This document shows, one piece after another, positions 28,645 to 48,814 of a stretch of DNA of 64,000 nt. A model generated the notes under the pieces. The model worked only from the letters and a program-made list of their open reading frames with translations. It was not told where the DNA came from and did no database searches. Position numbers and translations under genes: made by a program. Numbering within the stretch: the stretch's first letter is position 1; the number at the start of each line of letters is the position of its first letter. Source of the DNA: Minisyncoccota bacterium (GTDB lineage Bacteria > Patescibacteriota > Minisyncoccia > Phycocordibacterales > UBA9973); NCBI GenBank assembly GCA_031291825.1, contig JARLIG010000009.1:65281-129280 (forward strand), read 5' to 3'.

Positions 28645-28956
28645 CTATTTAATCTTGATTTTACCCCCTTTGATTCCGAGATTTTTCCTGATTGCAGAAT
28701 ATGATTCTATCTTTCCATCTTTCCCAGTCGCTTTAGCGATAGTTACGATATAAGGCTTGCGTACAGACTTGAATTGGTAACCGCGATTCTTCGGCAATTT
28801 CTTAATGATATCACGAAGTTCTGGACGACGCTTGTTACCAGCGCGAGCGGTCTGACCCTTGCCTCCGCGACCAGAAGTCTTGGCATGCTTGCCTCCACGG
28901 CCAACGATGCGGTCTTTCTTATTCTTATGAACTCTTTTTAAATTATGTATTTGCAT
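28645..28956 (-). CDS. rplO: 50S ribosomal protein L15
   Basis: Gly/Arg-rich GRGGKHAKTSGRGGKGQTARAG L15 pattern. Confidence 0.85.
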   Translation of the reverse strand: MQIHNLKRVHKNKKDRIVGRGGKHAKTSGRGGKGQTARAGNKRRPELRDIIKKLPKNRGYQFKSVRKPYIVTIAKATGKDGKIESYSAIRKNLGIKGGKIKIK

Positions 28957-29032
28957 TTAATTTAATTACGAATTATTAATTACGGATTACGAATTGAATT
29001 TTAATTTGAAATTCTTAATTCGTAATTTCTAA
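28957..29032. repeat. AT-rich intergenic palindrome built from AATTACGAATT / AATTCGTAATT units (rpsE|rplO spacer)
   Basis: The same AATTCGTAATT(CGTAATT) unit recurs in the rplR|rpsE spacer 29616-29646 and the rpmC|rpsQ spacer 34323-34355. Confidence 0.6.
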
Positions 29033-29614
29033 TTGCTCTCTTGGCACTTCTTTGTTATCAACCACCACAACTGGACTTTCAGCTGCAATCTTTGTGTATT
29101 TGGAAGAAATTTGGGAAAGTGCGGACATGACTGCCTTGGCATTGTTTAATTTATTTTTACTATTAGACAAGATCTTTCCAGTAATGTCTTTCATACCGGA
29201 AATCTTCACGATGTCACGGATAACCGAACCGGCGACAAGTCCACGTCCTTTGTTTGGTCGTAGTGAGATATGCGAACTAGAGAATTTTGCGGAAAGTTCG
29301 TGAGGAATAGACATCGTTTTGGTCAAATTTAGTCTAATCATATTTTTCTTGGCATTGCGAAGAGCTTTGTTGATAGCGAGCGCGGTGTCTCCAGCTTTTC
29401 CTAAACCTAAACCAACAGCCCCCTTTTTATCACCCGCGATAAGAGCAACACTGAAGGAAAATCTTCGTCCTCCAGCAACTACTCTAGTCACTCGGCGAAT
29501 GTTTAAAATCTTTTGGTCAAACTCTGGCTTGGAGCGTGGAAAAGATGAACCGCCTCTGCGATTATTGTTCTTTCTTCCACTGCCACTGTTTGAATTTTCT
29601 TTTGGTTTTTCCAT
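29015..29614 (-). CDS. rpsE: 30S ribosomal protein S5
   Basis: IRRVTRVVAGGRRFSFSVALIAGDKKGAVGLGLGKA canonical S5. Confidence 0.9.
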   Translation of the reverse strand: MEKPKENSNSGSGRKNNNRRGGSSFPRSKPEFDQKILNIRRVTRVVAGGRRFSFSVALIAGDKKGAVGLGLGKAGDTALAINKALRNAKKNMIRLNLTKTMSIPHELSAKFSSSHISLRPNKGRGLVAGSVIRDIVKISGMKDITGKILSNSKNKLNNAKAVMSALSQISSKYTKIAAESPVVVVDNKEVPREQLEITN

Positions 29615-29643
29615 GTTCTTAATTCGTAATTCGTAATTTTTAA

Positions 29644-29985
29644 TTAGAACTCCAATCCCCCAGCTCGCGCTTCATCAGCCACTAATTTTACACGGCCAGT
29701 ATATTTAAAACCATTTCGGTCAAAGACAACTTTCTTGATTTTGGCTTTCGTGGCATTTAGAGCAATCGCACGACCAACTTCTTTAGCTCTTTCAGTCTTA
29801 GTGCCTTTGGTTGTCTTCACATCACTGGCTTCAGCTAAAGTTTTACCCACCATGTCATTGATCAATTGCGCATAGATAAATTTATTAGAACGAAAAACCG
29901 TGAGTCTTGGACGTTCTGCAGTTCCCACAATCTTGGCTCGGATTTTTCTCTTTAGTCTTATTCTTTTGTCTTGTTTATTTTGCAT
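29644..29985 (-). CDS. rplR: 50S ribosomal protein L18
   Basis: [29 protein letters not shown]18 pattern; no L30 gene between rpsE and rplO. Confidence 0.85.
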
Positions 29986-29998
29986 AATATTTTTTGTT

Positions 29999-30036
29999 TG
30001 AGACGTTGTACATCTTTTAGAGATGTCCAGCGTCTG
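29999..30036. repeat. REP-like palindrome of the GACGTTGGACATC family (rplF|rplR spacer)
   Basis: AGACGTTGTACATCT...AGATGTCCAGCGTCT. Related hairpins at 30594-30632, 33623-33668, 38634-38674 and 47841-47884. Confidence 0.55.
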
Positions 30037-30044
30037 GAAAATTT

Positions 30045-30578
30045 TTAGACAGTCTTCTTGCCTTGCTTACGTCTAATAACTTCGTCCTCATAACGCATAC
30101 CCTTTCCTTTATAAGGTTCTGGCTTTTTCAAAGCGCGGATGGCAGCTGTAAAACTTCCAACTAATTCTTTATCAATTCCGGAAATTGTGATGTTGTTTTT
30201 TTCAGCGGTAGCGGTGATGCCTTCTGGTATCTTTACGATGACTGGATGAGAAAATCCTAGAGCAAAATTAAAAACATTACCTTTGACTTCAGATTTAAAT
30301 CCGACACCTTCTAAAATTAATTTTTTCTGATAAGGCGTCTCAACTCCTTTAATCATATTTTTGATATGGGAAGCATAAGTACCCCAAAGAGACTTGGAAA
30401 ATTTATCGTTTCTCTTTATGTTTAAAGTAATCATCTTGTCAGCCACAGTGATAGCGATATCGTCTCGGAAAACTCTAGTGAGAGTTCCTTTTGGACCAAC
30501 CACTGTTAAAGAATTGCCACTTTGGGTGACCTTCACTCCTCCCGGTATTAAAATTTCTTGTTTTCCTATTCTTGACAT
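30045..30578 (-). CDS. rplF: 50S ribosomal protein L6
   Basis: [17 protein letters not shown]... two-domain L6. Confidence 0.9.
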
Positions 30579-30593
30579 AAATTTTTATTATTC

Positions 30594-30632
30594 CAGACGT
30601 TGGACACCCGTTCTGCGGATGTCCAACGTCTA
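30594..30632. repeat. REP-like perfect palindrome CAGACGTTGGACA-loop-TGTCCAACGTCT (rpsH|rplF spacer)
   Basis: 12-13-bp perfect stem. Confidence 0.6.
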
Positions 30633-30637
30633 TTGTT

Positions 30638-31024
30638 CTACCATACCCTAAACAACGCCTCGCCCCCAACTTGTTCTTTGCGAGCCACCTTACCTGATAA
30701 AATTCCTTTTGGTGTTGAAAGTACAAGTAAACCAGTGCCATTGCGGACAGAGTGAATATCTTTCATACCATAATAAACTCGGCGTGATTGCTTGGAGATT
30801 CTTTCAACTTCAGTTATTTTTGGCTTTTTGTCTGCATAAACCAATTTTACTTCCAAAACAGGAATACCCTTTTTTACTTTCTTGGTAACTTCAGAAAGGT
30901 AGCCTTCCTTTTTCAAACATTCACCAATAGCCAGCTTCATTTTTGAATATGGAAAACTCACAGACTCAAGACCTGCGAGACTACCGTTCTTCATTATTAT
31001 TATCATGTTTGAAATTGAATCCAT
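30638..31024 (-). CDS. rpsH: 30S ribosomal protein S8
   Basis: ISNMIIIMKNG...GECLKKEGYL S8 pattern. Confidence 0.85.
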   Translation of the reverse strand: MDSISNMIIIMKNGSLAGLESVSFPYSKMKLAIGECLKKEGYLSEVTKKVKKGIPVLEVKLVYADKKPKITEVERISKQSRRVYYGMKDIHSVRNGTGLLVLSTPKGILSGKVARKEQVGGEALFRVW

Positions 31025-31029
31025 AAAAT

Positions 31030-31215
31030 TTACCAGCTTGATTTACGAACACCCGGAAGCATTCCTTCATTTGCTAATTCTCGAAAACAAATACGGCAAA
31101 TACCAAAGTCACGCATAAAAGCGTTGCCTCTTCCGCAACGAAAACATCGATTTTTCTGTCGAGTAGAAAATTTTGGTGTCTTTAAAGCTCTTGCTTTGAC
31201 TGATGTTTTTGCCAT
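31030..31215 (-). CDS. rpsZ: 30S ribosomal protein S14 type Z (zinc-binding)
   Basis: 61 aa with [23 protein letters not shown] zinc ribbon. Confidence 0.85.
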
Positions 31216-31437
31216 CCCATTAAAAAAATTAAAATAATAAACTTACTGCTTCTTACAAGTCCACTGATTTTCTAACGGGACAAGTAAATAATTACTGGGA
31301 TTGCTTCGTTAATATCTCACTTTTTTTCTTTAAGTCTTTAAAAGTAAAGATTCAAAGGAGAAAAATGGATTAATCAAAGCCCTATTCCCTTGCGTAGAAT
31401 ACTAGCAGATTAAAAACAATTAGTCAAACATATGTAC

Positions 31438-31989
31438 TTATTTACATATATAAGCTGGAGTAGAAATTTTCCATGCCCAACTAGAGAAAGATGTACCACA
31501 CTGAGTAACGGCACCACCCTCCCTGGCGGGGTCAATAAAAGTAGGATATTGGGCATACATGGAATTAGTCCAGCCAACATCCGAGATGGCGAGATCTAGA
31601 AGAGCATAATCGGTGCCATTAGATTTATAGAGATAACAACTAGTACTATTAGTTGCGTTCATAGTAGGGTCAGCGGGAAAAGTAGGCATATACGTAGAAA
31701 CAAGACCTGGAATAACTGCATTAGCAGCAAAACTACCCCAAGAAGCACATTGACTTTGCGAAGCCCCCCCAGTTGTTGGATATACTCCATAGTCATCATA
31801 GTAATTTTCTAACGCTGTTTGAATTTCTCTCATATCAGACAATCTTCTTGCGATGTTGGCCTTGAGACGTGCAGCATTGACACTAGATAAAACAATCGTG
31901 GAAAGTAGCCCAATAATGGCAACCACCACCAAAAGTTCAATTAAAGTGAAACCTCGATGAGTATTTTTATATGCTTTTAATAACTTCAT
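31438..31989 (-). CDS. type IV pilin (prepilin with class III signal peptide)
   Basis: MKLLKAYKNTHRG|FTLIELLVVVAIIGLLSTIV: leader ending in Gly, Phe+1, Glu+5, hydrophobic N-terminal helix; start chosen at the internal Met of the longer ORF. Confidence 0.7.
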   Translation of the reverse strand: MKLLKAYKNTHRGFTLIELLVVVAIIGLLSTIVLSSVNAARLKANIARRLSDMREIQTALENYYDDYGVYPTTGGASQSQCASWGSFAANAVIPGLVSTYMPTFPADPTMNATNSTSCYLYKSNGTDYALLDLAISDVGWTNSMYAQYPTFIDPAREGGAVTQCGTSFSSWAWKISTPAYICK

Positions 31990-31990
31990 C

Positions 31991-32251
31991 TTAATGAGGA
32001 TAGGTTGGGTTATTTTGATTAGTCGACTGTACGTTATTTGACACATCAAAGTGAATAAATAAAACAATAGAAACGACGACAATTAATATTATAAGTCCAA
32101 ATAAAATCCATTCTGCTTTTCGTGGGTCTTTTACTAATCCACCTGAATTTTTCATAATAAATAATATCACTGCAGGGGCAGCTGTCTCATCGTACAGTTT
32201 AATGGCTTTATATTTTTTAGTATTATTGGGAATTGGTGGTTGGTCACTCAT
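31991..32251 (-). CDS. small C-terminally membrane-anchored protein, MSDQPPIPNN family (paralog 2)
   Basis: 86 aa; identical N-terminus MSDQPPIPNN and homologous C-terminal TM region (AEWILFGLIILIVVVSIVLFIHF) to 32313-32726; stop is 1 nt from the pilin ATG. Confidence 0.5.
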   Translation of the reverse strand: MSDQPPIPNNTKKYKAIKLYDETAAPAVILFIMKNSGGLVKDPRKAEWILFGLIILIVVVSIVLFIHFDVSNNVQSTNQNNPTYPH

Positions 32252-32312
32252 GGTTATATTATATCTAAAATTATTTTAATGACAAGCACTAGAAGTATAA
32301 AATTTGCAATTA

Positions 32313-32726
32313 TTACGGAAAGGTTGAGTCAATTTTACTAGTTGGTGGTACAGGATTTGGGAGATTGAAGTGAATAAATAAAAACACAGAAAAAGCAACC
32401 ATTAATATTACAAACCCTAAGAGTATCGATTCTGCTTGTCTTTGAGTTTTAACTGCGCCTCTGGATAATTTCATAACCATTTTAACCATTCCTGGAGTAG
32501 CTTTTTCTTGATAAGCTGAGATAGCAGCTTGAGCGGATGTCGCCGTTAAAATATCAGTGTCAAAGCTGACTCCATCTATATCATTTTTTCTTGGAATTTC
32601 TGGAATTTTTGTAGTTGAAGCAGAAACTGCTTGTAAAGATTGTCCAGTGTGATATTTACTAGCTTCAAATTCTTTAAGAGCTGCGTCTATTTCAGCGTTA
32701 TTAGGAATAGGTGGTTGATCACTCAT
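32313..32726 (-). CDS. small C-terminally membrane-anchored protein, MSDQPPIPNN family (paralog 1)
   Basis: 137 aa; AESILLGFVILMVAFSVFLFIHF C-terminal TM; upstream region duplicated with paralog 2 (TGCTTGTCATTA...TATAAT-N6-ATG). Confidence 0.5.
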   Translation of the reverse strand: MSDQPPIPNNAEIDAALKEFEASKYHTGQSLQAVSASTTKIPEIPRKNDIDGVSFDTDILTATSAQAAISAYQEKATPGMVKMVMKLSRGAVKTQRQAESILLGFVILMVAFSVFLFIHFNLPNPVPPTSKIDSTFP

Positions 32727-32775
32727 GATTCTATTATAAAGAAAATATATATAATGACAAGCAAAAATACCCCCA
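32727..32775 (-). promoter_or_regulatory. sigma70-like promoter TTGTCA-N16-TATAAT with the -10 ending 6 nt before the ATG (leaderless-type); duplicated at 32252-32300
   Basis: Gene-sense TGCTTGTCATTATATATATTTTCTTTATAATAGAATCATG and, for paralog 2, TGCTTGTCATTAAAATAATTTTAGATATAATATAACCATG. Confidence 0.5.
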
Positions 32776-32815
32776 AAGTAGGGAGTATTTTGAGTTTTAA
32801 TTATTTATTTAAGGC

Positions 32816-33385
32816 TTATTTTTTCTTTTCTTCTCCTTTTTTAAAAGGAACTCCGAGAATTTCAAAAAATGTTGTACCTTCTTTTTTGTTTTTAGCAGTT
32901 GAAACTAAGGTAATAGACATACCGAAAACATCGCGGATGTCCTCATCAGCTGTTTCTGGAAAAATTGTATGCTCTTTTATGCCAATAGTCAGATTGCCGA
33001 TATTATCGACAGCTGTGCGATTAATGCCTCGGAAGTCTTTGGTTCGAGGTAAGGCAACATTTACTAATTTTTCAATAAAAGCGTACATTCTCTTGCCACG
33101 CAATGTGACAACAATACCGACAGGGTCCCCTTGGCGAATCTTGAAGGATGAAATGGATTGCTTGGCACCTCGCAAAGCACCTTTTTGTCCAGTAATTTTT
33201 GCCAAACGGTCTGCAATAGCGTCATTCTTGTTTTTGTCTTTCTTCATCTGTGTGCCAGTGCCACTGTTAACCACTACTTTTTTTAGTCGTGGAGCTGCCA
33301 TCGCATTTTTGAAATGAAAAACTTCTTTCATCTTTGGAAATGCTTCTGTTTCTTTTTCTTTAATTGTTTTATGTGTTGTTGCCAT
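32816..33385 (-). CDS. rplE: 50S ribosomal protein L5
   Basis: Canonical L5 length and motifs (RLKKVVVNSGTG...). Confidence 0.9.
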   Translation of the reverse strand: MATTHKTIKEKETEAFPKMKEVFHFKNAMAAPRLKKVVVNSGTGTQMKKDKNKNDAIADRLAKITGQKGALRGAKQSISSFKIRQGDPVGIVVTLRGKRMYAFIEKLVNVALPRTKDFRGINRTAVDNIGNLTIGIKEHTIFPETADEDIRDVFGMSITLVSTAKNKKEGTTFFEILGVPFKKGEEKKK

Positions 33386-33390
33386 AATAT

Positions 33391-33609
33391 TTAATCTACC
33401 TTTTTAACATTGGAAACGTTGATTGGCATAGCTACACTCACCATTGTTCCCTTTTCTCCAGACTTTCTAGGGCGCTGATGTTTCTTCATCATGTTTAAAC
33501 CATCAATGATAACTTTGTTTTCTTTTACCAAAGCACGAACAACCTTGCCAGACTTTCCTTTGTCCTTACCGGTAATAACTTTTACATTGTCTCCTTTTTT
33601 TATTTTCAT
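33391..33609 (-). CDS. rplX: 50S ribosomal protein L24
   Basis: MKIKKGDNVKVITGKDKGKSGKV KOW motif. Confidence 0.8.
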   Translation of the reverse strand: MKIKKGDNVKVITGKDKGKSGKVVRALVKENKVIIDGLNMMKKHQRPRKSGEKGTMVSVAMPINVSNVKKVD

Positions 33610-33622
33610 ATACTTTGTTTTA

Positions 33623-33668
33623 TTCCAGATGTCGGTATTCTGCTTTAGCAGAAGCCTGACATCTGGAA
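33623..33668. repeat. REP-like long palindrome TTCCAGATGTCGG...CCTGACATCTGGAA (rplN|rplX spacer)
   Basis: ~14-bp outer stem plus inner palindrome TTCTGCTTTAGCAGAA. Confidence 0.55.
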
Positions 33669-33676
33669 TTAATTTT

Positions 33677-34048
33677 TTAAATCACTTCCTGCGCCAAAGA
33701 AATTATCTTTTGGAAACCCTTCTCCGCCAACTCTCTTGGTATTGGTCCGAAAACACGACCTGCCTTAGGGTCTTTCTTGCCTTTTTCTAAAATAACTACT
33801 GCGTTGTCATCAAAGCGGATATAGGAACCATCCTTTCGGCGATAAGCACCACGTGTGCGGACGACGACAGCTTGATGCACGTCTTTCTTTTTAACTGCTT
33901 TTCTGGGACTAGCTACTTTGACAGAAATGATGACCAACTCACCGAGTGTAGCATATCTCTTTTTAGAAGAGCCCAAAATCTTGAACACCTTTCCTACGGT
34001 GCCTCCGGCATTGTCTGTTATTTTTACTAAGGTTTCATTTTGAATCAT
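33677..34048 (-). CDS. rplN: 50S ribosomal protein L14
   Basis: MIQNETLVKITDNAG...canonical L14. Confidence 0.9.
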   Translation of the reverse strand: MIQNETLVKITDNAGGTVGKVFKILGSSKKRYATLGELVIISVKVASPRKAVKKKDVHQAVVVRTRGAYRRKDGSYIRFDDNAVVILEKGKKDPKAGRVFGPIPRELAEKGFQKIISLAQEVI

Positions 34049-34052
34049 AAAT

Positions 34053-34322
34053 TTATTCTTTGGAAATTACTTTAAATCTCTTATCTTTAGAAATTGGTTT
34101 GGTTTCGACAATTTCTACGGTATCCCCTATTTTATAAACATTCCCTTCGTCATGCGCCTTGTATTTCTTGCTGACTTTATAAAACTTTCCATAAAGTGGG
34201 TGCTTCACAAACCTGGAAACCGACACGACGACAGTCTTGTCCATCTTGTCTGAAGTGACTACCCCCTTTAAGGTTTTTCCTTTGACCTCTTCGGTATTCT
34301 CTTTTTTTATTTTTGTTTTCAT
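34053..34322 (-). CDS. rpsQ: 30S ribosomal protein S17
   Basis: [18 protein letters not shown]...[16 protein letters not shown]17 OB fold. Confidence 0.85.
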
Positions 34323-34353
34323 AAATTCGTAATTCGTAATTTTTAATCCGTAA

Positions 34354-34548
34354 TTATTTTTTATTTAATTCGGTCATTGCTCTGGCAATTTGTTTTTTTA
34401 AAATGGTGGACTCTTTTACATTCTTTGATCTTGAACCTTCCGCTTTAAAATGAATCACACGCAAAGCTTCCCTTAAGGACACTAATTCCTTTTTGAGTTC
34501 TGCCTCTTTCATCTCTTTAAAATTTACTTTGGTATTTTTCTTTGCCAT
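34354..34548 (-). CDS. rpmC: 50S ribosomal protein L29
   Basis: 64 aa, [18 protein letters not shown]29 pattern. Confidence 0.8.
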
Positions 34549-34559
34549 ATATTTAAATA

Positions 34560-34988
34560 TTATTGCTTATGCGCTCGGGAAATAATTCTGGTCTTAAGTG
34601 GAAGCTTGGTTCCAGCTTTGCGTAATGCCTCACGAGCAACTTTTTCTTCCGCTCCATCAACTTCAAAAATAATTCTACCTGGTAAAACATCAAAACAATA
34701 TCCTTGTGGGTCACCCTTACCCTTTCCCATGCCTACCTCAGCCGCTTTAGCTGTATAAGGACGGTCTGGAAAAACACGAATCCAATATTTTCCAGTTTTA
34801 GTTAAGGTTCGAGAAATAACTTTTCGAGCAGCTTCAAGTTGGTTTGATTTTACGCGTGATTGAGATTCAGACTTCAAGCCGAAAGAACCGAAGGCAAGCT
34901 TGGTGCCACGAGTATCTGGATTTCGAGACTTGGGATTATTGCGTCCAGTCTGCCACTTTCTAAATTTTACTTTTTTCGGTACTAACAT
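34560..34988 (-). CDS. rplP: 50S ribosomal protein L16
   Basis: MLVPKKVKFRKWQTGR...canonical L16. Confidence 0.9.
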   Translation of the reverse strand: MLVPKKVKFRKWQTGRNNPKSRNPDTRGTKLAFGSFGLKSESQSRVKSNQLEAARKVISRTLTKTGKYWIRVFPDRPYTAKAAEVGMGKGKGDPQGYCFDVLPGRIIFEVDGAEEKVAREALRKAGTKLPLKTRIISRAHKQ

Positions 34989-34991
34989 AAA

Positions 34992-35717
34992 TTAATCCGT
35001 CTTTTGTTTACTTTCTAATGAATTTTTTTCTCCGCCCTCTAAAGAAGCACGAGTTGGTTTTTTATCAGCAAAAATTTTACCACGATAAATCCAGACTTTG
35101 ATACCGACGACTCCATAAGAAAGGGTTGCTCGTTCACGCTTGAAATCGATGTCCGCGCGGAAAGACTGAAGTGGAACACTTCCTCGCTTAAGTTCTTCCG
35201 TACGAGCAATTTCAGCTCCACCTAAACGTCCACCCAATACGATTCTCGCACCCTCTACGCCATGCGCTTGCATAACTTTTTCGATGATTTGTTTAATGAC
35301 TCGACGATAAGGCATTCTTTTCTCTAATCCTTCAGCGATCATGTAAGCGACAATCGCAGCATCAGCTTCAGGGTTGGTGATTTCTACGATTTCTAGCTTA
35401 AAATCTTCAGGCTTTGGAAGTCCAAGCTTGTCCATCTTTTTTAAGATATCTTCTTTAAGTTTGGTTGCGCCTTCGCCGTTTCTACCGATAATCAAACCTG
35501 GACGAGAAGTCTTAATAATGAAACGAGTAGCTTTTCGGCTTCTCTCAATTTCAATTGTAGACACATACATCCCGCGTAATTTTTTAGTTAAATATTCACG
35601 AATCAAAACATCACCTTTTAAGTAAGCGACATATTTTTTAGGGTCGGCAAACCAACGAGACTTCCAGTCTCTTAATATAATCAATCTATGCGCATATGGG
35701 TGAACTATTTTTGACAT
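34992..35717 (-). CDS. rpsC: 30S ribosomal protein S3
   Basis: KH domain and S3-C domain (GRLGGAEIARTE). Confidence 0.9.
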   Translation of the reverse strand: MSKIVHPYAHRLIILRDWKSRWFADPKKYVAYLKGDVLIREYLTKKLRGMYVSTIEIERSRKATRFIIKTSRPGLIIGRNGEGATKLKEDILKKMDKLGLPKPEDFKLEIVEITNPEADAAIVAYMIAEGLEKRMPYRRVIKQIIEKVMQAHGVEGARIVLGGRLGGAEIARTEELKRGSVPLQSFRADIDFKRERATLSYGVVGIKVWIYRGKIFADKKPTRASLEGGEKNSLESKQKTD

Positions 35718-35718
35718 T

Positions 35719-36120
35719 TTATTTTTTTGCTACTTTTTTAACTACTACTTTTGCCTTTTTAACATCTTTAACTTCTTTGGTCTTTTTCACAGCAACAACT
35801 TTCTCCGCCAAGAGAAGGTTGATGTGACTGGTGCGTTTATTAATACGGTGCCCAGTTCCCATGGCAGCCGGCATCATTCTCTTCATTACAATACCTTTAT
35901 CTACTCGCAATTCTTTGATAAATAAATTTTCACTTTCAATTCCCATTTGTTTAGCATTGGCAACAGCAGAAAGTAAAAGTTTCTTGATCGGTAATCCAGC
36001 ACGCTTCGCCAAAAAATCTAGCTCCGCCACAGCTTGAGCTACACCTTTTCCCTTAATGAGTCCCGCCACAAGGCGAACCTTTCTAGGTGATTGTCTGTAA
36101 TTTTTTAAAAATGCTTTCAT
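35719..36120 (-). CDS. rplV: 50S ribosomal protein L22
   Basis: AFLKNYRQSPRKVRLVAGLIKGK L22 pattern. Confidence 0.85.
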   Translation of the reverse strand: MKAFLKNYRQSPRKVRLVAGLIKGKGVAQAVAELDFLAKRAGLPIKKLLLSAVANAKQMGIESENLFIKELRVDKGIVMKRMMPAAMGTGHRINKRTSHINLLLAEKVVAVKKTKEVKDVKKAKVVVKKVAKK

Positions 36121-36152
36121 GATAATTAATTATTTATAGTGAGTATATAGAA

Positions 36153-36500: not shown

Positions 36501-36525
36501 AATAAAAAGCTCCTAACGAGCTTGG

Positions 36526-36557: not shown

Positions 36558-36629
36558 CTAGATTTTTAAAAACCATTATGTTAAAAAGCTCAAATCAAAA
36601 AACTACTTTTTTGGTTTAAATAAAAATAC

Positions 36630-40485: not shown

Positions 40486-40486
40486 A

Positions 40487-41101: not shown

Positions 41102-41105
41102 AAAA

Positions 41106-41537
41106 TTACATCATCTTAACGTCAATATCGACTCCGGAAGGCAAAGTTAAATTAGTCAGAGCCTCCACGGTCTTTGCATTTGGATTTATTATGTCAATCA
41201 ATCGCTTGTGCACTCTTATCTCAAATTGTTCTCGTGTGTTTTTGTAAATAAAAGCGGAACGATTAACGGTATATTTTTTTATTTCAGTCGGTAATGGAAC
41301 CGGACCGACAATATTTGCATCGTAACGGGTAGCAGTATCCATGATTTGTTTAACAGAAGCATCCAAAATCTTACTCTCGTAAGCACGAACTCGGATACGA
41401 AGCACAATTTTTCCATCTGTTGCAGTCTTCTCTTTTTTAAGAGAGGCCTTGGTAGTTTTAGCTACCTTTGCAACCTTTGGTGTAGTAGCTTTCACCGTCT
41501 TTGGCTTTTTTATTTTTGTTTCTGTTTCTGTTGTCAT
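41106..41537 (-). CDS. rpsJ: 30S ribosomal protein S10 (with Lys/Thr-rich N-terminal extension)
   Basis: C-terminal ~100 aa is canonical S10 (IRIRVRAYESKILD...HKRLIDI). Confidence 0.85.
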   Translation of the reverse strand: MTTETETKIKKPKTVKATTPKVAKVAKTTKASLKKEKTATDGKIVLRIRVRAYESKILDASVKQIMDTATRYDANIVGPVPLPTEIKKYTVNRSAFIYKNTREQFEIRVHKRLIDIINPNAKTVEALTNLTLPSGVDIDVKMM

Positions 41538-41571
41538 GAATTTATTTTAAAGTACAAATCTACCCTATAAA

Positions 41572-42765
41572 CTATCCCAGAATCTTTGTAACCACTCCTG
41601 CGCCGACTGTCTTGCCTCCCTCACGAATCGCAAATCTTTGTGATTCTTCTAGGGCGACTGGAGTAACTAATTTAACAGTAATTTTAACGGTGTCGCCTGG
41701 CATAACCATTTCAGTTCCTTCAGCCAAGGTAACATCTCCAGTCACATCCGTAGTTCGGATATAAAACTGAGGCTTGTAACCCTTGAAGAAAGGAGTGTGG
41801 CGTCCACCTTCTTCCTTTTTCAAAACGTAAATTTCGCAAGTAAAGTGATCGTGTGGAGTAGTTGTACCTGGCTTGCAGAGAACTTGTCCACGGGTAATGT
41901 CTTCTTTCTTCAAACCACGGAGAAGAACTCCAGCGTTGTCGCCAGCCATACCTTCTTGAAGATTCTTGTTAAACATTTCAATTCCAGTAACAGTGGTCTT
42001 TTGAGTTGGCTTGATTCCGACGATTTCAACTTCTTCACCAACTTTAACGATTCCTCTTTCGATTTTACCGGTCACAACTGTTCCACGGCCTTCAATTGAG
42101 AAAATATCTTCGACTGGCATCAAGAAAGGTTTCTTAATATCTCGTTCTGGGATTGGAATATAAGTATCAAGAGCATTTACGAGTTCAAGAACTTTCGCTG
42201 CCCAAGGGTCACTGATGTCTTTTGCTTCGAGAGCCTTAAGAGCAGAACCACGGATAACTGGAGCGCCTGCGCCATCAAAGCCTTGCTTGGTAAGAAGTTC
42301 ACGAATTTCCTCTTCAACGAGGTCAATCATGTCTTTATCATCAACCATATCGCACTTGTTCAAGAAAACAATAATCTTTGGAACACCAACTTGTTTTGCA
42401 AGCAAAACGTGTTCACGAGTTTGAGGCATCGCTCCATCGGTTGCAGCTACCACCAAGATAGCACCGTCCATTTGAGCGGCACCAGTAATCATGTTCTTGA
42501 TATAGTCAGCGTGTCCAGGAGCATCGATGTGCGCATAGTGACGAGCGTCCGTAGCATACTCGTTGTGTGAAATATTGATGGTTATTCCTCGAGCTTTTTC
42601 TTCAGGAGCGTTGTCGATTTGGTCAACTCCACGAAGACGAACAGTCTTTCCTGCCATGTTTAAAACATGCAAGATTGCAGCTGTTAATGTTGTCTTTCCA
42701 TGGTCAACGTGACCAATGGTGCCGACATTGATGTGCGGCTTATCTCTTTTAAATTCTTCTGCCAT
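41572..42765 (-). CDS. tuf: elongation factor Tu
   Basis: [23 protein letters not shown]-motifs; 397 aa. Confidence 0.95.
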
Positions 42766-42949
42766 AATTTTATTGATTACTAACCAAAACTCAGTGTACG
42801 AGAACCAGTCACTAAGGCTTAGTTACTAATGATAATTAATAAACTTTAATAATAAAAAACCAATATAAAAACTGCAGAAAGTGCAGTTATCAAGATAATA
42901 GCAGATTAGAAAATATTGTCAAACTACCTTGTTGTGATAAACTAAACAG

Positions 42950-43621
42950 ATGAATATGGAATCTAAAGAACCTAAAAATACACCAGAAAAACCGAAAGTC
43001 ACAGACGAGAGAAGTGAGCTCCTCGCAGAAGTATTTAAAAGGTATCATAAAGATTTGATTAAATGGTGTATCGCTAGACTAAACAAGCTAACAATAAAAG
43101 GTAGTCGTATCTCTAATAATCTAAAAAGTGATGCGGAAGAAATCGTCGCGGATGTCTATAAAGTATTATTGACTGATAAAAATCCCATAGACCTAAATCG
43201 TACTGATGCTGAAATAGGAAAATTTTTAAATATTGTCTTAGATCAAGCAGTTATTCATTATGTTAGAAAAATCACAGCTCAGAAAAGATTTCCTAGGGGT
43301 GGTTTCGTGTCGACCGAAGAAATAACTGAGGAAAATGACGAGGAAGAATTGCTTGAAAAACTTAAAGAGTATTTTACTCAAAAGACAGACGACACAATAG
43401 AAGATGGGCGGTGGCCTATGATAAAAGATGCTTTGGTGGAATTAGAAAAACAAGATAAACAACAAGTGGACATGATTAGAGCTTTGTATCAAGAAGGACA
43501 TACCTTGGAAGAAATAGGAAAAAGTTATGGTTTTTCAAGAGAAAATGCAAGACAAAGAATTAAAAGGGGTCTTAATAAGATAAAATATCATATTATTCAA
43601 TACAAAAAACCGCTCAGTTGA
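42950..43621 (+). CDS. sigma-70 family (ECF-like) RNA polymerase sigma factor, between tuf and fusA on the opposite strand
   Basis: Region-2-like LAEVFKRYHKDLIKWC and region-4 HTH LEEIGKSYGFSRENARQRIKRGLNKI; promoter-like TTGTCA-N16-TAAACT upstream. Confidence 0.5.
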   Translation: MNMESKEPKNTPEKPKVTDERSELLAEVFKRYHKDLIKWCIARLNKLTIKGSRISNNLKSDAEEIVADVYKVLLTDKNPIDLNRTDAEIGKFLNIVLDQAVIHYVRKITAQKRFPRGGFVSTEEITEENDEEELLEKLKEYFTQKTDDTIEDGRWPMIKDALVELEKQDKQQVDMIRALYQEGHTLEEIGKSYGFSRENARQRIKRGLNKIKYHIIQYKKPLS

Positions 43622-43626
43622 GCGGT
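43609..43626. terminator. bidirectional terminator AAAAAACCGCTCAGTTGAGCGGTTTTTT shared by the sigma gene and fusA
   Basis: 7-bp GC stem with A-run and T-run. Confidence 0.6.
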
Positions 43627-43646
43627 TTTTTGTATTTAGTCTATTT

Positions 43647-45797
43647 TTATTTTCTAGCAGCGATGATGGTTTCAGCCACGTTGTTTGGCACGATATCGTA
43701 ACGGAAGAATTCCATTGTGAAACCTGCGCGGCCTTCAGTCATCGAACGTAGGCCGGTCATGTAACCGAACATTTCTGAAAGAGGAACCACAGCTTTGATA
43801 ACTTTGTTCATTCCACGGTCTTCCATGCCTTCAATCAGTCCACGCTTAGAGGAAAGATTTCCAGTAACGTCTCCCATGAATTTATCTGGAGTAACAACTT
43901 CCACTTTCATCATCGGCTCAAGAATCACAGGGCCAGCTCGACGACAAGCGTCTTGGATAGCCATGCTAGCGGCGATTTTGAAAGCCATTTCGTTCGAGTC
44001 AACTTCGTGATAACTTCCATCCCATAAATCTACAGAAACATTGACGATTTTGAATCCAGCTAAAATTCCTCGGTCCAAACCTTCTTTGAATCCTTTTTCA
44101 CAAGGAGCAATATATTCTTGTGGAATAACACCTCCTTTGATACTATTCACAAATTCGAAACCTTCCGAACGCTTGGTATTCTTTGGTAAATCTTCTACTT
44201 CTTCCTTGGTCAGCATTTCCATCGGCTTAACTTTAATCTTTACGTGTCCATAGTTTCCACGTCCGCCAGATTGCTTGATATATTTTCCTTCAGCATCAGA
44301 AGTGCCGGTAATTGTTTCGCGATAAGCCACTTGTGGTTTACCAACATTTGCCTCAACGGTAAATTCTCGTTTCATACGGTCCACAATAATTTCCAAATGT
44401 AATTCTCCCATTCCGGCGATAATCGTCTCCCCTGTTTCTTGGTCGGTCGAAACTCGGAAAGTCGGGTCTTCTTGCGCCAAACGATTGAGCGCCATTCCCA
44501 TTTTTTCTTGGTCTGCTTTTGTCTTTGGTTCGATGCGAAGTTGAATAACTGGCTCTGGAAAAACAATACGGTTTAATTCAATAGGATTTTCTTCGTCACA
44601 AATAGTGTCAGAAGTAATCGTATCTTTTAATCCGACAGCGGCGGCGATTTCTCCAGCAAAAACTTCTTTCACTTCTTCTCTATCATTCGCATGCATGCGC
44701 AAGATACGTCCAATACGTTCCTTGTTGCGAGTACGAGGATTATAAACATAACTTCCAGCTGATAAAGTTCCAGAGTAAACGCGGAAGAAGATAATTTGTC
44801 CGACGAATGGATCTGTTGCGACCTTGAAAGCTAGCGCGGCAAATGGTTCAGAGTCGGAAGCATGACGAACCATCGGCTCATCAGTATCTGGATTAATTCC
44901 TGGAATTGGTGGAATATCTAAGGGTGATGGCAAATAATCGACAACACCATCAAGTACTAACTGAACGCCTTTGTTCTTTAATGCACTACCAGCATAAACT
45001 GGAAAAATTTCATTATTAATAACTGCCTTACGAAGAGTCTTTTTCAAAACATCTAGATTTGGAACAATGCCTTCTAAGTATTCAGTCATCATGGTATCAT
45101 CGGTTTCAACTATTTTTTCAATAAGTTCTCCGTGGTATTTTTCCGCTTCTGCTTTTAAGTTTTCAGGAATTTCTTTTTCTACAACCTTATTACCCATTTC
45201 ACCTTCAAAGTAATATGCCTTCATGCGAAGCAAGTCAATCACACCTTCGTGCTGTTCTTCTTGCCCAATTGGGATTTGCATTCTGACCGCTTTTTTTGTC
45301 AGACGATCTAATATCGTAGCAAAAGAATGTTCAAAGGATGCACCAGTGCGGTCTAATTTATTTATAAAACAAATACGAGGAACTTTCGCTTCGTCCGCAT
45401 AGCGCCAGTTGGTTTCGGATTGCGGTTCTACGCCAGCAACTCCGTCAAAAACAACCACGGCACCATCGAGCACGCGAAGAGAACGCTTCACTTCTACAGT
45501 AAAGTCAATGTGTCCAGGTGTATCGATGATATTAAAACGGTGTTTTTTAGATTTATCTTTTATGTCTGCATACGTCGGAGTCCAGAAACAAGTCACTGCC
45601 GCAGAAGTAATGGTGATACCTCGCTCTCGTTCTTGCTCCATCCAATCGGTCGTCGTCTCTCCATCATGCACTTCTCCGATTTTGTGTGATACGCCAGTGT
45701 AAAAAAGCACACGTTCGGTCGTAGTTGTCTTGCCGGCATCAATGTGCGCAATAATTCCAATGTTTCTGACTTTTTCTAACGGATAATCTCGTTCCAT
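43647..45797 (-). CDS. fusA: elongation factor G
   Basis: 716 aa with [21 protein letters not shown] motifs. Confidence 0.95.
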
Positions 45798-45898
45798 AAA
45801 TTAAATCTAACTAATTAAATATTAAAAAAGCGCAGGGTGCGCTTACCGACAATATATAACATAAAACTATTTTTTGCAAATACGTTTTTTCTAAAAAA

Positions 45899-47209
45899 TT
45901 ATTTATTTAATACCGCGCGAGTCATTGCTCCAGCCACTCCATCACCCTTTAATCCATTGGCAATTTGAAACTTACTGAGAGCGATTTGAGTCTTTAATCC
46001 AAACTTACCATCAGCTGTTCCAACACTATAACCAGCATTATTTAAAAATGTTTGTAACTCCACAACTTCATTTCCCGAAGAACCTCTCTTGAGTAATTGA
46101 GTAAATTGAAAAGACGTTGTTGTGGTGGATGTTGGAGTAGTGGTATTACTGTTGCAAGGCAAGCCAGTGGTAACACTAAAACTATTTGTTCCAAGACAAC
46201 CAGGGAGTGGAGCTGTGGGAGTTCCAGTTGGAGTCGTTGCGGGTGTGGTAGTTGGAGTAGTGGTAGGAGTAACGACTGGAGCTGGCATAGTCATCGCACC
46301 AGCGCTGGTAGATTGAGGTGATGTATCCCCCGTAGCATCATAGGATGCTACAGTGAAAGAATATATTGTTCCAGGGGTAAGTGAAGTTACTGTGTAATAA
46401 GTATTTGCGGTAGTTCCAATTTGAGCTCCAGCTTGATAAACATCATAGCCCGTAATTCCAAAACTATCAGTGGGAGCAGTCCAAGTTAAATCAATTTGAG
46501 AAGATGATACTGGAGTCGCTTGCAAGGATGCTGGAGATAGCGGAATTGTTGTGGCTAATGTGGTAGAACCTGGAGTAGTTACACTGACTGGAGTTGATTG
46601 TCCTGAATTATTTCCGAGTGTATCGCGAGCATCAACAGTAAAATAATAAGTCGTAGAAGCCAGCAAGCCATTTATATTGTAATAAGTATTTGTCGTTGTG
46701 CCTATCTGCACTCCGTTTTGAAAAATATCATAACCAGCTATGGCGATACTACTAGTTGACGCCGTCCAAGATAAACTATATTGAGATGGTGAAATGGTGT
46801 TGATGGTTAAAGTAGGTACAGTGGGAGGTAAAAGAACTGTAGTGGTTGCACTAGCGCTTGTTGATTGTCCTGATGTGTTTCCAGCTGCATCATAAGCTGA
46901 AACAGTAAAAGAATAAGTAGTTGACGCACTTAAACCAGAAACATAATAGGAATTGTTTGTGGTCGTTGTAATCTCATTTCCATTTTCATATACATTGTAT
47001 CCAGCAACTCCCGTGTCATCCGTCGAAGCCATCCAAGACAGATTTACTTGCGAAGAAGAAACTGGAATCGCAATAAGTTGTGTTGGAGTTGTTGGAGGAG
47101 TCGTGTCGGCTCCAGCGAAAACATTACGGTTTCCAAGTATACTAAAAGAAACAATTAGCATTAAAGCAAAAAGCTTTTGCAAATTTATTTTTGATATCAT
47201 ATTAAACAT
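45899..47209 (-). CDS. secreted protein with three fibronectin-III-like repeats, Thr/Pro linker and C-terminal peptidoglycan-binding (PG_binding_1-like) domain
   Basis: Signal peptide; thrice-repeated ~90-aa unit (PVSSSQ..L.W.A.TD..G..GY.VY..G..IGTT.N..Y...L...T.Y.F.V.A.D..GN.S.QS); C-terminus GSSGNEVVELQTFLNNAGY...GKFGLKTQIALSKFQ. Confidence 0.6.
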   Translation of the reverse strand: MFNMISKINLQKLFALMLIVSFSILGNRNVFAGADTTPPTTPTQLIAIPVSSSQVNLSWMASTDDTGVAGYNVYENGNEITTTTNNSYYVSGLSASTTYSFTVSAYDAAGNTSGQSTSASATTTVLLPPTVPTLTINTISPSQYSLSWTASTSSIAIAGYDIFQNGVQIGTTTNTYYNINGLLASTTYYFTVDARDTLGNNSGQSTPVSVTTPGSTTLATTIPLSPASLQATPVSSSQIDLTWTAPTDSFGITGYDVYQAGAQIGTTANTYYTVTSLTPGTIYSFTVASYDATGDTSPQSTSAGAMTMPAPVVTPTTTPTTTPATTPTGTPTAPLPGCLGTNSFSVTTGLPCNSNTTTPTSTTTTSFQFTQLLKRGSSGNEVVELQTFLNNAGYSVGTADGKFGLKTQIALSKFQIANGLKGDGVAGAMTRAVLNK

Positions 47210-47245
47210 ATTTTACCATTAGCGATGTATTTTTAGCAAACAAAA

Positions 47246-47506
47246 CTATTTATAAATTTCATGACCTCCAATGTCGGCAAACAAGACTTCATTTTTAGAA
47301 ATGAAGCGAAAAGCTATCCTAAATTTATAGTTTACTGAAAAACCAAAATATTCCTTGAATTTACCATGGAGCTTATGAACTTCTAAAGTTTCATGATTTG
47401 TTCTATCTTTAAATAAATCAATTTTGTCTAAAACATCCTTCTGTAGACCATTCTCCAGTTTTTTAAATTTGCGGACAAAAAATGGAGAATAAATAATTTC
47501 AATCAT
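47246..47506 (-). CDS. type II toxin, RelE/ParE superfamily
   Basis: 86 aa; C-terminus YKFRIAFRFISKNEVLFADIGGHEIYK matches the RelE/ParE core; directly downstream of the RHH antitoxin. Confidence 0.6.
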   Translation of the reverse strand: MIEIIYSPFFVRKFKKLENGLQKDVLDKIDLFKDRTNHETLEVHKLHGKFKEYFGFSVNYKFRIAFRFISKNEVLFADIGGHEIYK

Positions 47507-47510
47507 TTTA

Positions 47511-47729
47511 TTAGAATTTTTTTGCTAATTCTCTCAGGTCTCCTCTTAGGCCTTTCCCTTCTGCAATTTCTCTTTCTGATTGAAGAATATTCTGAACTGC
47601 TTCGTTTTCTTGATATTCTCTTAAGGCACGTCGAACAACATCAGCTTTGTTCGCGCCTTTTCCGTCCTTAATCATTCTTTCTATGAATTTTTCCAAGTCC
47701 CCCGAAATGGGTACAGATAATGTGGTCAT
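47511..47729 (-). CDS. ribbon-helix-helix antitoxin (ParD-like)
   Basis: 72 aa; MTTLSVPISGDLEKFIERMIKDGKGANKADVVRRALREY matches ParD/RHH. Confidence 0.55.
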   Translation of the reverse strand: MTTLSVPISGDLEKFIERMIKDGKGANKADVVRRALREYQENEAVQNILQSEREIAEGKGLRGDLRELAKKF

Positions 47730-47804
47730 GTTTTTTATAAATTATATGATAATGTAATATTATAATATCATATAGTGAAGAAAAAGTGAAGTCAAGATAA
47801 ACAA

Positions 47805-47826
47805 AAAATCCCTTTGGGGATTTTTA
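47805..47826. terminator. intrinsic terminator AAAAATCCCTTTGGGGATTTTT downstream of rpsG
   Basis: GC hairpin plus T-run; followed by REP-like palindrome 47841-47884. Confidence 0.55.
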
Positions 47827-47886
47827 AAATAAAAAGTTTATTCTAGATGTTGGACATCTGCAAAGCAGGTGTACAACATCAGAAAA

Positions 47887-48357
47887 CTACCAAGCAAAGT
47901 GAGCAAAAGCTTTATTGGCTTCGGCCATTTTGTGAGTGTCTTCTTTCTTTTTAATGGCGGCGCCTTCGTTTTTCGAAGCAGCAATCAATTCATCAGCAAG
48001 TTTTAAGTGCATTGGTCGTCCTTTTCCACCACGAGCTGCATCACGAATCCAGCGCATAGCTAAGGCAAGTCGGCGTTCAGCACGAACTTCGACAGGCACT
48101 TGATAGTTTGCACCTCCGATTCTTTTCGAACGAACTTCGGTCATTGGTCCAGCGTTTCTGAGAGCTAAGTCAAAAATTTCCAAAGGATTAGGATTGCCTG
48201 TCTTTTCTTTTATAACATCAAGGGCAGCGTACATAACCTTGCGAGCGGTCTCTTTTTTTCCAGACCACATGACATAGTTAATGAACTTCTCCAATTTTTG
48301 AGAGTTGTAAATAAAATCTGGGGCTACGATATTTCGGTTGTTTACTTTTCTTCGCAT
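47887..48357 (-). CDS. rpsG: 30S ribosomal protein S7
   Basis: MRRKVNNRNIVAPDFIYNSQKLEKFINYVMWSGKKETA canonical S7. Confidence 0.9.
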   Translation of the reverse strand: MRRKVNNRNIVAPDFIYNSQKLEKFINYVMWSGKKETARKVMYAALDVIKEKTGNPNPLEIFDLALRNAGPMTEVRSKRIGGANYQVPVEVRAERRLALAMRWIRDAARGGKGRPMHLKLADELIAASKNEGAAIKKKEDTHKMAEANKAFAHFAW

Positions 48358-48385
48358 AATTTTAATAGGCTCTAGGCATTAGGCA

Positions 48386-48814
48386 CTAGGCTTTAGCTTT
48401 TCCCTCTCGGGGCTTTTTGTTACCATATAAAGATCTACCTTGTCGGCGCTTCTCGACTCCTTGAGTATCAAGTACTCCGCGTACGATGTGATATCTTACT
48501 CCAATCAAGTCTTTCACACGTCCTCCGCGTAGCATGACCACTGAGTGTTCTTGCAAGTTGTGTCCTTCCCCTGGGATATAAGCAGTGACTTCCATGCCGT
48601 TCGTCAAACGTACGCGAGCGATTTTTCGGAGAGCAGAGTTTGGCTTTTTAGGAGTGGTTGTAGAAACTTTCACGCAAACACCTCGTTTGAAAGGAGCTGG
48701 AAAAAAGACTGGTCTGTTTTTCAGAACATTAAATCCACGAGCCAAGGCGACAGTTTTCGTCTTGGAATGGACCTTCACTCTATTTTTCTTTATTAATTGG
48801 TTTATTGTTGGCAT
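48386..48814 (-). CDS. rpsL: 30S ribosomal protein S12
   Basis: [14 protein letters not shown]...[10 protein letters not shown] canonical S12. Confidence 0.9.

Follow-up and report, generated by a model that had tools for sequence, protein, structure and literature searches.

Results

The ribosomal protein string is divided into five blocks

We analysed a 64-kb window (38.7% GC) of contig JARLIG010000009.1 from a Minisyncoccota bacterium, which carries the str-S10-spc string of ribosomal protein (r-protein) genes; all positions are given in the numbering of the whole window. Twenty-five genes from rpsL to secY lie on the minus strand in the canonical order and in a common orientation, as read from their translations and confirmed with NCBIfam and Pfam. 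They are arranged in five blocks. The first (47887-48814) contains rpsL (48386-48814) and rpsG (47887-48357), identified from their translations and from Pfam matches (Ribosom_S12_S23, Ribosomal_S7) on the identical genes of another assembly, L090 (L numbers denote the loci used for comparison). The second consists of fusA alone (43647-45797), identified from its translation and from the EF-G domains that Pfam finds in relatives. The third (38696-42765) runs from tuf (41572-42765) through rpsJ, rplC, rplD and rplW to rplB (38696-39535), and the fourth (32816-36500) from rpsS (36153-36500) through rplV, rpsC, rplP, rpmC, rpsQ, rplN and rplX to rplE (32816-33385). The fifth (27361-31215) begins with a type Z rpsN (31030-31215) and continues with rpsH, rplF, rplR, rpsE and rplO (28645-28956) to secY (27361-28632).

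The open links between these blocks measure 2089 nucleotides (nt) at rpsG|fusA, 881 nt at fusA|tuf, 2195 nt at rplB|rpsS and 1600 nt at rplE|rpsN. Together they contain at least 12 non-ribosomal open reading frames (ORFs) or units, so the string lacks the short spacers of a contiguous super-operon. In E. coli each of these links lies within a single operon: rpsG|fusA and fusA|tuf in str, rplB|rpsS in S10, and rplE|rpsN in spc. Because rplB|rpsS measures at most 106 nt and rplE|rpsN at most 78 nt in four Firmicutes and 12 basal Parcubacteria, we regard the four gaps as real departures from the usual arrangement. A preliminary description of this DNA, whose gene calls proved correct, had placed five disrupted junctions between 28645 and 48814. 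Four of them do lie there, but the fifth, rplK|(rplA), is found outside that span at 60113-60535 and reflects the absence of a gene rather than an insertion. The broken canonical links exceed those then listed: the upstream neighbour of rpsL is an M50 peptidase gene and not rpoC, so the rpoBC flank is missing; a kinase gene on the opposite strand separates secY from adk; and map is followed by a gene for a 922-amino-acid (aa) DUF8128-family protein, not by infA and the rest of the canonical infA-rpmJ-rpsMKD-rpoA-rplQ flank.

The same breakpoints recur in related genomes

Searching one genome per GTDB species with rplB, we collected 80 loci, comprising the closest relatives, then other Parcubacteria, and then four Firmicutes that served as outgroups. 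Exact-protein look-ups of L14 and S12 added 10 r-protein loci, for a total of 90, and an L11 look-up added two short rplK contigs (L091 and L092); the exact-sequence look-up of S19 matched no record. The best rplB matches (85-95% identity) were metagenome-assembled genomes (MAGs) of Candidatus Nomurabacteria, assigned in the NCBI lineage to the Parcubacteria group of Patescibacteria.

Spacers were measured after all 27 window proteins had been placed in every locus by tblastn. The L2|S19 (rplB|rpsS) spacer ranges from -18 nt, an unreliable value from L021, to 9692 nt, and is at least 500 nt long in 36 of 65 genomes. Among relatives the L5|S14 (rplE|rpsN) spacer reaches 2925 nt and the S7|fusA (rpsG|fusA) spacer varies from 3 to 3504 nt, while fusA|tuf is open throughout Parcubacteria, with at least 200 nt in 38 of 43 genomes. 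S10|L3 is expanded in several more distant genomes and not in the window. The runs from rpsS to rplE and from rpsN to secY are interrupted in no relative, and in the outgroups rplB|rpsS and rplE|rpsN measure at most 16 and 81 nt, respectively. On a neighbour-joining tree of eight concatenated r-proteins, built on MAGs, an open L2|S19 link characterises one clade, sampled here with 55 genomes of Vogel-, Kaiser-, Taylor-, Zambryski- and Nomurabacteria and including the window. Recurrence of the same breakpoints, together with confinement of the rplB|rpsS split to one monophyletic clade, supports the earlier suggestion of a lineage-specific relaxation of operon integrity.

Downstream blocks have conserved promoters and 5' leaders

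Each block downstream of a gap is preceded on the minus strand by a predicted promoter and a short leader. Upstream of tuf (42777-42922), a TTGACA-16-TATTAT promoter (42895-42922, score 11 of 12) is followed by a hairpin with a U-run (42870-42888) and by a 53-nt hairpin in the 5' untranslated region (42777-42829). The rpsS element (36501-36557) combines a TTGACA-16-TAGTAT promoter with TG (36530-36557) and a short leader hairpin with a Shine-Dalgarno (SD) sequence (36507-36523), and the rpsN element (31296-31427) a TTGACT-17-TAGTAT promoter (31399-31427) and a structured leader whose core helix spans 31314-31370. At fusA (45828-45880) we found a promoter-like site, TTTGCA-N18-TATATT (45851-45880), with a U-run hairpin (45828-45844) near the predicted transcript start. 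This site had been in doubt, given the terminator-like hairpin that follows it; it was accepted because the same layout of promoter and hairpin is seen at tuf, at rpsS and in relatives. The hairpins of the fusA, tuf and rpsS leaders located above (45828-45844, 42870-42888 and 36507-36523) are of an AAGC..GCTT type, with a U-run, shortly after the promoter, and may be a shared 5' stabiliser or attenuator.

At the DNA level, the window gaps and those of relatives share conserved sequence only in the last 60-190 nt before rpsS, tuf and rpsN, apart from a toxin-antitoxin module (in L002) and short stretches within the L5|S14 cassette. The -35 and -10 boxes are invariant in the rpsS, tuf and rpsN alignments, also where the spacer is 75-170 nt (L004, L008, L009, L019). 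In 23 relatives, minimal-spacer genomes included, the rpsS promoter TTGACA...TGnTAnnAT is invariant and accompanied by the small SD-containing hairpin. The tuf alignment (20 genomes) retains a TTGACA-17-TAnTAT promoter, the U-run hairpin by the predicted transcript start and the 53-nt hairpin, whose loop is ACUGGUUCUCGUA. Nine of the 21 pairs in the latter have changed on both sides, 96.5% of alignment cells are paired, none of 500 shuffles reaches the values observed and slid controls collapse. In the rpsN leader of about 80 nt (promoter and leader aligned in 21 genomes), compensatory changes affect 12 of 18 pairs across 19 genomes, an internal loop UUCUCC / GAAAAAA and a 3' GAUAU are invariant, and the fold z-score is -3.5. 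No Rfam family matched the rpsN or tuf leader. The fusA promoter and leader are common to all relatives with a split rpsG|fusA link and missing where the two genes are 9-34 nt apart.

The preliminary description held that new promoters and terminators restore expression at each junction. Promoter-like and terminator-like sites, which we take as functional on sequence grounds, are indeed found at every one, but the rpsS, tuf and rpsN promoters are not new, since they are conserved in relatives whatever fills the gap, even with minimal spacers. For fusA the term is reasonable, as genomes without the rpsG|fusA split lack its promoter and leader. The conserved promoters and leaders thus indicate that the downstream blocks are established units and were not rescued by promoters arriving with the present cargo; these blocks are probably regulated transcription units. 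The tuf and rpsN leaders may take part in such regulation. That of rpsN is a candidate new r-protein leader, and binding by S8 or S14 is only a guess.

Gap contents turn over between close relatives

We grouped 304 gap ORFs of at least 50 aa from five junction types into 271 clusters, 254 (94%) of which are singletons. The 150 largest cargo ORFs match 70 Pfam families, one transposase (IS1595) among them; the families include diacylglycerol kinase, pyrD/pyrE/pyrF, pilins, MazF toxins, response regulators, surface proteins and purine enzymes. In the window cargo, Pfam showed no transposase, integrase or recombinase that would mark a mobile element. The nearest relative, L084, whose L2 is 96.8% identical, has other L2|S19 content and no L5|S14 cassette. 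With relatives the window shares only a pilin cassette (patchy), a sigma-like gene (in one genome) and a toxin-antitoxin pair (in L002 and L090). The possibility had been raised that related genomes would show the same gene content at these junctions as a stable ancestral arrangement; the positions are ancestral and stable, but the content is not.

L090, an independent assembly, is 100% identical to the window over the full 2089-nt rpsG|fusA gap, and this arrangement is therefore not an assembly artefact. In addition, the 82-aa ORF of the rplB|rpsS gap described below is also present on a separate Logan contig. In L064, whose L2|S19 gap is 9.7 kb long, rplJ and rplL are located inside that gap at about 13343-14247. 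Downstream in it lies a 416-aa ORF that we suspect from its sequence to be TnpB-like, and further on an ORF that is probably the single ISXO2-like transposase of the census.

Cargo at rpsG|fusA, fusA|tuf and rplE|rpsN

Block 1 ends with a terminator-like hairpin with a T-run (47804-47825, minus strand). It is followed on the same strand by a candidate type II toxin-antitoxin module (47246-47795) of a RHH/ParD-like gene (47511-47729, 72 aa) and a RelE/HigB-like gene (47246-47506, 86 aa), 4 nt apart, with Pfam scores below the cutoffs (ParD_antitoxin 18.4 versus 21 bits, HigB-like toxin 21 versus 27). Its promoter (47767-47795) overlaps palindromic, operator-like inverted repeats (47732-47785). 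The module occupies the same junction in the species-level relative L002 and in L090, which is of the same strain. Among the genomes, RelE-like toxins occur at three different junctions, and four other genomes have RelE-like homologs at junctions. The remainder of this gap encodes, also on the minus strand, a 436-aa secreted protein (45899-47209) with three fibronectin type III domains and a peptidoglycan-binding domain (Pfam fn3 5e-29, PG_binding_1 6e-15).

At fusA|tuf, a bidirectional terminator (43595-43640, both strands) serves fusA and a convergent plus-strand gene (42950-43621) for a 223-aa sigma-70 region 4 or ECF-like protein (Pfam Sigma70_r4 2.5e-10), a homolog of which was found at this junction in L007 only. 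The rplE|rpsN cassette (31438-32791, minus strand) consists of a terminator (32764-32791), two near-perfect TTGTCA-16-TATAAT promoters (32733-32760 and 32258-32285), genes for two paralogous small membrane proteins (32313-32726 and 31991-32251) and a type IV pilin-like gene (31438-31988; N_methyl 7e-09). We rejected a 214-aa call for the pilin ORF in favour of the start ATG at 31988, because a normal prepilin leader results. The pilin and membrane-protein cassette is patchily distributed, occurring in at least seven genomes besides the window, including L001, L004, L019, L086, L087 and L089. Compared with L084, the L5|S14 insert sits between the rplE stop codon and the rpsN promoter.

The rplB|rpsS gap holds a GC-enriched island of small predicted units

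The rplB|rpsS gap holds a GC-enriched island (36558-38628, 45% GC versus 39% for the window) of about seven predicted mini transcription units, all on the minus strand. A 37-nt promoter element occurs in three copies (38584-38620, 38307-38343 and 37941-37977) and one terminator in two (37991-38021 and 37615-37649). Five SD-preceded orphan ORFs encode a basic 45-aa product (38408-38545), products of 69 aa (38035-38244) and 78 aa (37658-37894), and membrane proteins of 62 aa (37143-37331) and 82 aa (36845-37093); two further units with terminal terminators (37401-37433 and 36628-36659) have no ORF. One ORF-less unit, at 36625-36745, has a fold z-score of -6.8; the other spans 37398-37545. The island contains no ORF of Pfam-scale length.

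A large structured RNA or intron was considered for the island and rejected, as Rfam searches at gathering and E-value thresholds gave only hairpin-driven chance matches and the sequence is organised instead in promoter-ORF-terminator cassettes; Rfam likewise found nothing in seven relatives. A foreign mobile origin found no match either when the island was compared by blastn with phage and plasmid collections. Among the 92 related loci, tblastn detected no homolog of the island ORFs, and the 2.1-kb gap body matches nothing there. A word-indexed protein search with the 82-aa ORF returned only itself, as a copy in another assembly. HMMER with the 78-aa ORF against 1.84 billion representatives gave two weak matches to large proteins, five short stretches each, which we judged not meaningful, and the positional counterparts of the 45-aa ORF (19-27% identity) are too weak for homology.

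In nearly all close relatives the L2|S19 spacer is GC-enriched by 4-12 points, it contains no Pfam-bearing gene in seven annotated loci, and it harbours SD-preceded ORFs of 40-83 aa with 18-35% Lys plus Arg. The first promoter after the rplB terminator is kept between the window and L086/L087. These last two loci also share a 136-nt block, 87.5% identical, with hairpin potential and no ORF (gap coordinates L086:278-412 and L087:484-619), with conserved tiny basic ORFs (MSANP...KWPPGERTKK) on either side; the block is possibly a small RNA gene specific to a Nomurabacteria subclade.

Palindromic hairpins do not mark the borders of the gaps

A hairpin of the GAYGTYGKACAYC..GRTGTMCRACRTC family (47846-47880) stands directly after the rpsG stop codon, and another of the same family, with about 24 bp (38629-38680), directly after that of rplB. 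The pattern ACACCTG..CAGATGT gave two matches in the window versus none in 100 shuffles. Further palindromes of the family lie in intact spacers, namely S8|L6 (30594-30632) and L6|L18 (30001-30035), with a variant in L14|L24 (core 33628-33663, spacer 33610-33676). All are on the minus strand, and the five window copies, of 35-52 nt, are all intergenic and all within the r-protein cluster (29.9-47.9 kb). The family is rare in relatives, with seven copies in 1.48 Mb of r-protein loci and eight in 2.1 Mb of loci. Where relatives have an insertion after rplB, the terminator there is mostly an unrelated AAAAATCCCC..GGGGATTTTT one.

The preliminary description had repetitive extragenic palindromic (REP)-like hairpins flanking several junctions. 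Both of its hairpins exist and are related, but they lie only on the upstream side of their two gaps, and three further copies occupy uninterrupted spacers. The palindromes are REP-like in form and are no marker of insertion borders. We also observed intercistronic palindromes that are present in some close relatives and missing from others at one and the same short r-protein spacer (seen with L084, L087 and L005): in some relatives such a spacer has only 5-15 nt, in others 55-66 nt with a hairpin. The pattern points to a small element that is either mobile or created repeatedly.

rplK is not followed by rplA

On the plus strand (59495-60586), nusG (59495-60040) and rplK (60113-60535) are followed by a terminator (60553-60586), an ATP-grasp gene (60615-61643), a MazG-like gene and a dCMP deaminase gene; neither rplA nor rplJ, rplL or rpoBC follows. 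We found rplA next to rplK in none of 69 metagenomic relatives with L11 86-96% identical and enough downstream sequence. ORFs of about 220 aa directly after rplK in relatives, L1-like in size, turned out to be Vut_1 transporters. The gene after rplK in relatives encodes a dCMP deaminase, a Vut_1 transporter, an ATP-grasp enzyme, an uncharacterised membrane protein or various other products, and the context seen in the window is reproduced by the independent assemblies L091 and L092. Across L093-L172, the DNA after rplK is variable among close relatives and consists mostly of genes of nucleotide and folate metabolism, for dCMP deaminase, dCTP deaminase, dihydrofolate reductase, MazG-like, ATP-grasp and F420-ligase-like proteins. 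Published work reports that L1 is absent in OD1-L1 Parcubacteria and L30 in all members of the Candidate Phyla Radiation (CPR) (Brown et al. 2015 as cited in PMC5220378; Tsurumaki et al., bioRxiv 10.1101/2022.01.07.475337). The missing rplA is most probably this published clade-wide loss of L1 together with relocation of rplJL-rpoBC, and not an insertion. Similarly, the 58-nt spacer between rpsE and rplO (28957-29014) contains no ORF and hence no rpmD (L30).

Other features of the window

The DUF8128-family protein of about 920 aa (22460-25228 in the window) is always encoded next after map in L081-L088, replacing the alpha operon at the end of the spc block. A P-loop NTPase motif, GQTGTGKT, is present in the window copy, and TraG-D_C is a faint match in some relatives only. 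Upstream of rpsL, rpmB (L28; 49535-49798, plus strand) lies between the M50 peptidase gene and a DEAD-box helicase gene, and the L090 annotation is identical. The product of rplO (L15, 28645-28956) has 103 aa; of the 144 positions of its profile only the first 83 are matched, which falls short of the NCBIfam cutoff. This short form is clade-wide, since relatives' products at the same position have 100-103 aa and no Pfam match. S10, encoded by rpsJ (41106-41537), has an N-terminal extension of about 45 aa rich in Lys, Thr and Ala, the products of relatives measuring 99-154 aa. ARAGORN predicted a tRNA-Ile with anticodon TAT and a tRNA-Ser with anticodon ACT, at 13548-13622 and 5745-5834, both anticodons being unusual.

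Discussion

A proposed role of established unit boundaries as landing sites for changing cargo

We propose that in these Nomurabacteria and related Parcubacteria, long-standing unit boundaries with their own promoters serve as permissive landing sites for changing cargo, a reading to which we assign a probability of roughly 0.8. The str-S10-spc string would have kept its order and orientation while being long partitioned into rpsL-rpsG, fusA, tuf-rpsJ-rplCDWB, rpsS...rplE and rpsN...secY, with a sigma-70-type promoter and a conserved 5' leader for each downstream unit. Expression downstream would then be independent of read-through, and DNA placed between a terminator and the next promoter should have no polar cost; it is this lack of cost, which we infer, that would make the inter-unit spacers permissive. 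Unit boundaries would be the only places in this essential region that tolerate extra DNA, so that cargo would accumulate and turn over there. It may be gained, lost and exchanged by ordinary recombination, for which the conserved r-protein flanks could plausibly act as homology arms.

The preliminary description raised, as one candidate, a dedicated insertion mechanism with the REP-like palindromes as recognition or attachment sites. The hairpins after rplB and rpsG are related in sequence, all five window palindromes lie inside the r-protein cluster, and their presence varies between close relatives as that of a small mobile palindrome would. Yet three of the five sit in uninterrupted spacers of 59-67 nt (S8|L6, L6|L18, L14|L24), the fusA|tuf and L5|S14 gaps have no palindrome, and no gap has a copy at its downstream border. 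Since most insertion-bearing relatives also lack the family and have an unrelated terminator after rplB, and since mobile-element genes are nearly absent (no gene for a REP-associated tyrosine transposase (RAYT), transposase or integrase in the window, one transposase among the 150 largest cargo ORFs of relatives), we consider this proposal very improbable. It is hardly conceivable that the gaps are assembly or binning artefacts, such as chimeric joins in a MAG. The sequence evidently stems from metagenomic assembly, and the GC content of the L2|S19 island is deviant, but independent assemblies reproduce the rpsG|fusA gap exactly (L090), the rplK context (L091, L092) and one of the ORFs in the L2|S19 island. 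Dozens of MAGs produced in unrelated studies show the same breakpoints, and the conserved promoters and leaders abut the gaps in register.

Two other readings give the interposed genes a role of their own. If the arrangement were ancestral, stable and functional, with long-standing interposed genes co-regulated with ribosome synthesis, "insertion" would be a misnomer. Breakpoints, promoters and leaders are indeed ancient, the pilin cassette occurs at L5|S14 in at least seven other genomes and pyrD-pyrE-pyrF at fusA|tuf in at least nine, and the first promoter after the rplB terminator is kept in the window and L086/L087. We nevertheless consider this quite unlikely, given the 94% of cargo clusters that are singletons, an L2|S19 gap body without a match in 92 loci, presence and absence that differ between sisters (window versus L084, L089 versus L083, L086/L087 versus L085), and cargo units that mostly have their own promoters and terminators, one of them on the opposite strand. 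The other reading makes the rplB|rpsS spacer a clade-wide locus for fast-evolving tiny Arg/Lys-rich proteins, small RNAs or both, acting on the ribosome or translation. The GC enrichment of the spacer, its SD-preceded basic ORFs, the conserved small ORFs and 136-nt block of L086/L087 and the ORF-less unit 36625-36745 (z = -6.8) are in its favour, and r-protein adjacency and strong promoters would suit such products. Between most genomes, however, the spacer has no detectable homology: a search with the 82-aa ORF recovers nothing but that ORF, one with the 78-aa ORF gives no credible match, and the positional "homologs" of the 45-aa ORF are just 19-27% identical. Arg-rich ORFs arise easily in GC-rich DNA, and more distant relatives have ordinary genes at rplB|rpsS. 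We therefore regard this reading as unlikely. Somewhat bolder, and to our mind doubtful though worth stating, is the idea that the rpsN and tuf leaders are new autoregulatory RNA classes permitting the division of S10 and spc, with the rplB|rpsS spacer as a micro-protein and small-RNA expression site for the reduced CPR ribosome.

Several observations weigh against permissive boundaries as a complete account. Not all gap content is neutral baggage, since part of it is semi-conserved: this holds for the pilin cassette, for pyrD-pyrE-pyrF at fusA|tuf and, within one subclade, for diacylglycerol kinase at L2|S19. No terminator lies between the pilin gene and the rpsN promoter, and in L084 this promoter abuts the rplE stop codon; the ancestral state of L5|S14 may for this reason have been an internal promoter in a read-through operon. 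Our scan gave 51 promoter-like sites versus 40.8 expected and 25 terminator-like sites versus 16.1, all of them consensus matches in an AT-rich genome, and with counts so modestly above expectation an individual site is not proof. The tree is a simple distance tree from MAGs, on which the patchy pattern of split and compact rpsG|fusA does not separate into gains, losses and allelic exchange. Finally, the L2|S19 value of -18 nt is unreliable, because the rpsS start of L021 falls in masked N bases.

Significance and relation to known systems

The str-S10-spc string is a textbook case of change-resistant gene order, and blocks of its genes are widely used in the phylogeny of uncultured bacteria with synteny assumed. 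A large CPR clade that is stably cut inside the S10, spc and str operons indicates that order can outlast co-transcription. As a natural system it lends itself to the study of how, in very small genomes, gene turnover comes to concentrate at operon boundaries, and it yields two leader RNAs as candidates for new classes together with a number of orphan micro-genes. For annotation and binning pipelines, foreign inserts on the kilobase scale are to be expected within the r-protein block of these organisms.

The window has the CPR/OD1-L1 signature in that it lacks an L30 gene between rpsE and rplO and an L1 gene after rplK, and its S19 has an Ala/Lys-rich C-terminal tail. It differs from what the passages considered here from those papers report, which are gene absences and trimming of proteins and rRNA rather than operon splits. 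Our full-text literature search found no description of intra-operon splits or variable cargo in CPR; in the full text of the Tsurumaki preprint (10.1101/2022.01.07.475337), "operon", "synteny" and "gene order" are absent and "gene cluster" occurs once.

The palindromes resemble REP elements as short imperfect palindromes in spacers of highly expressed operons, with related copies whose presence varies between close relatives. In contrast to REP elements, the five copies were seen within 18 kb, no RAYT gene is found among the ORFs of the 64-kb window, and two copies stand at expected terminator sites. As in autogenous r-protein leaders, conserved structured 5' untranslated regions with compensatory changes lie directly upstream of r-protein and EF-Tu genes. 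The S8 site on the E. coli spc mRNA is an example of such leaders, and most of these RNAs are narrowly distributed (Fu et al. 2013, PMC3616713). The rpsN and tuf leaders differ in that they belong to no Rfam family and stand at positions that are operon-internal in model bacteria.

The closest parallel to the gaps themselves is the invasion-separation model for Gammaproteobacteria and Bacilli, in which insertions between operons break the concatenation of operon to operon (2019, PMC6735719). In both cases a few unrelated genes lie between consecutive units of the translation machinery whose order and orientation are kept. Rates of alteration are raised in particular lineages there, which was read as relaxed selection on gene order, and some units are fully relocated, much as rplJL-rpoBC and the alpha operon are absent from our window. 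Unlike in the invasion step of that model, the breaks described here fall inside single E. coli operons, are fixed clade-wide and come with their own promoters and leaders, and the gaps turn over much faster than their flanks. The divided string is thus a lineage-specific variant of the known erosion of operon clusters.

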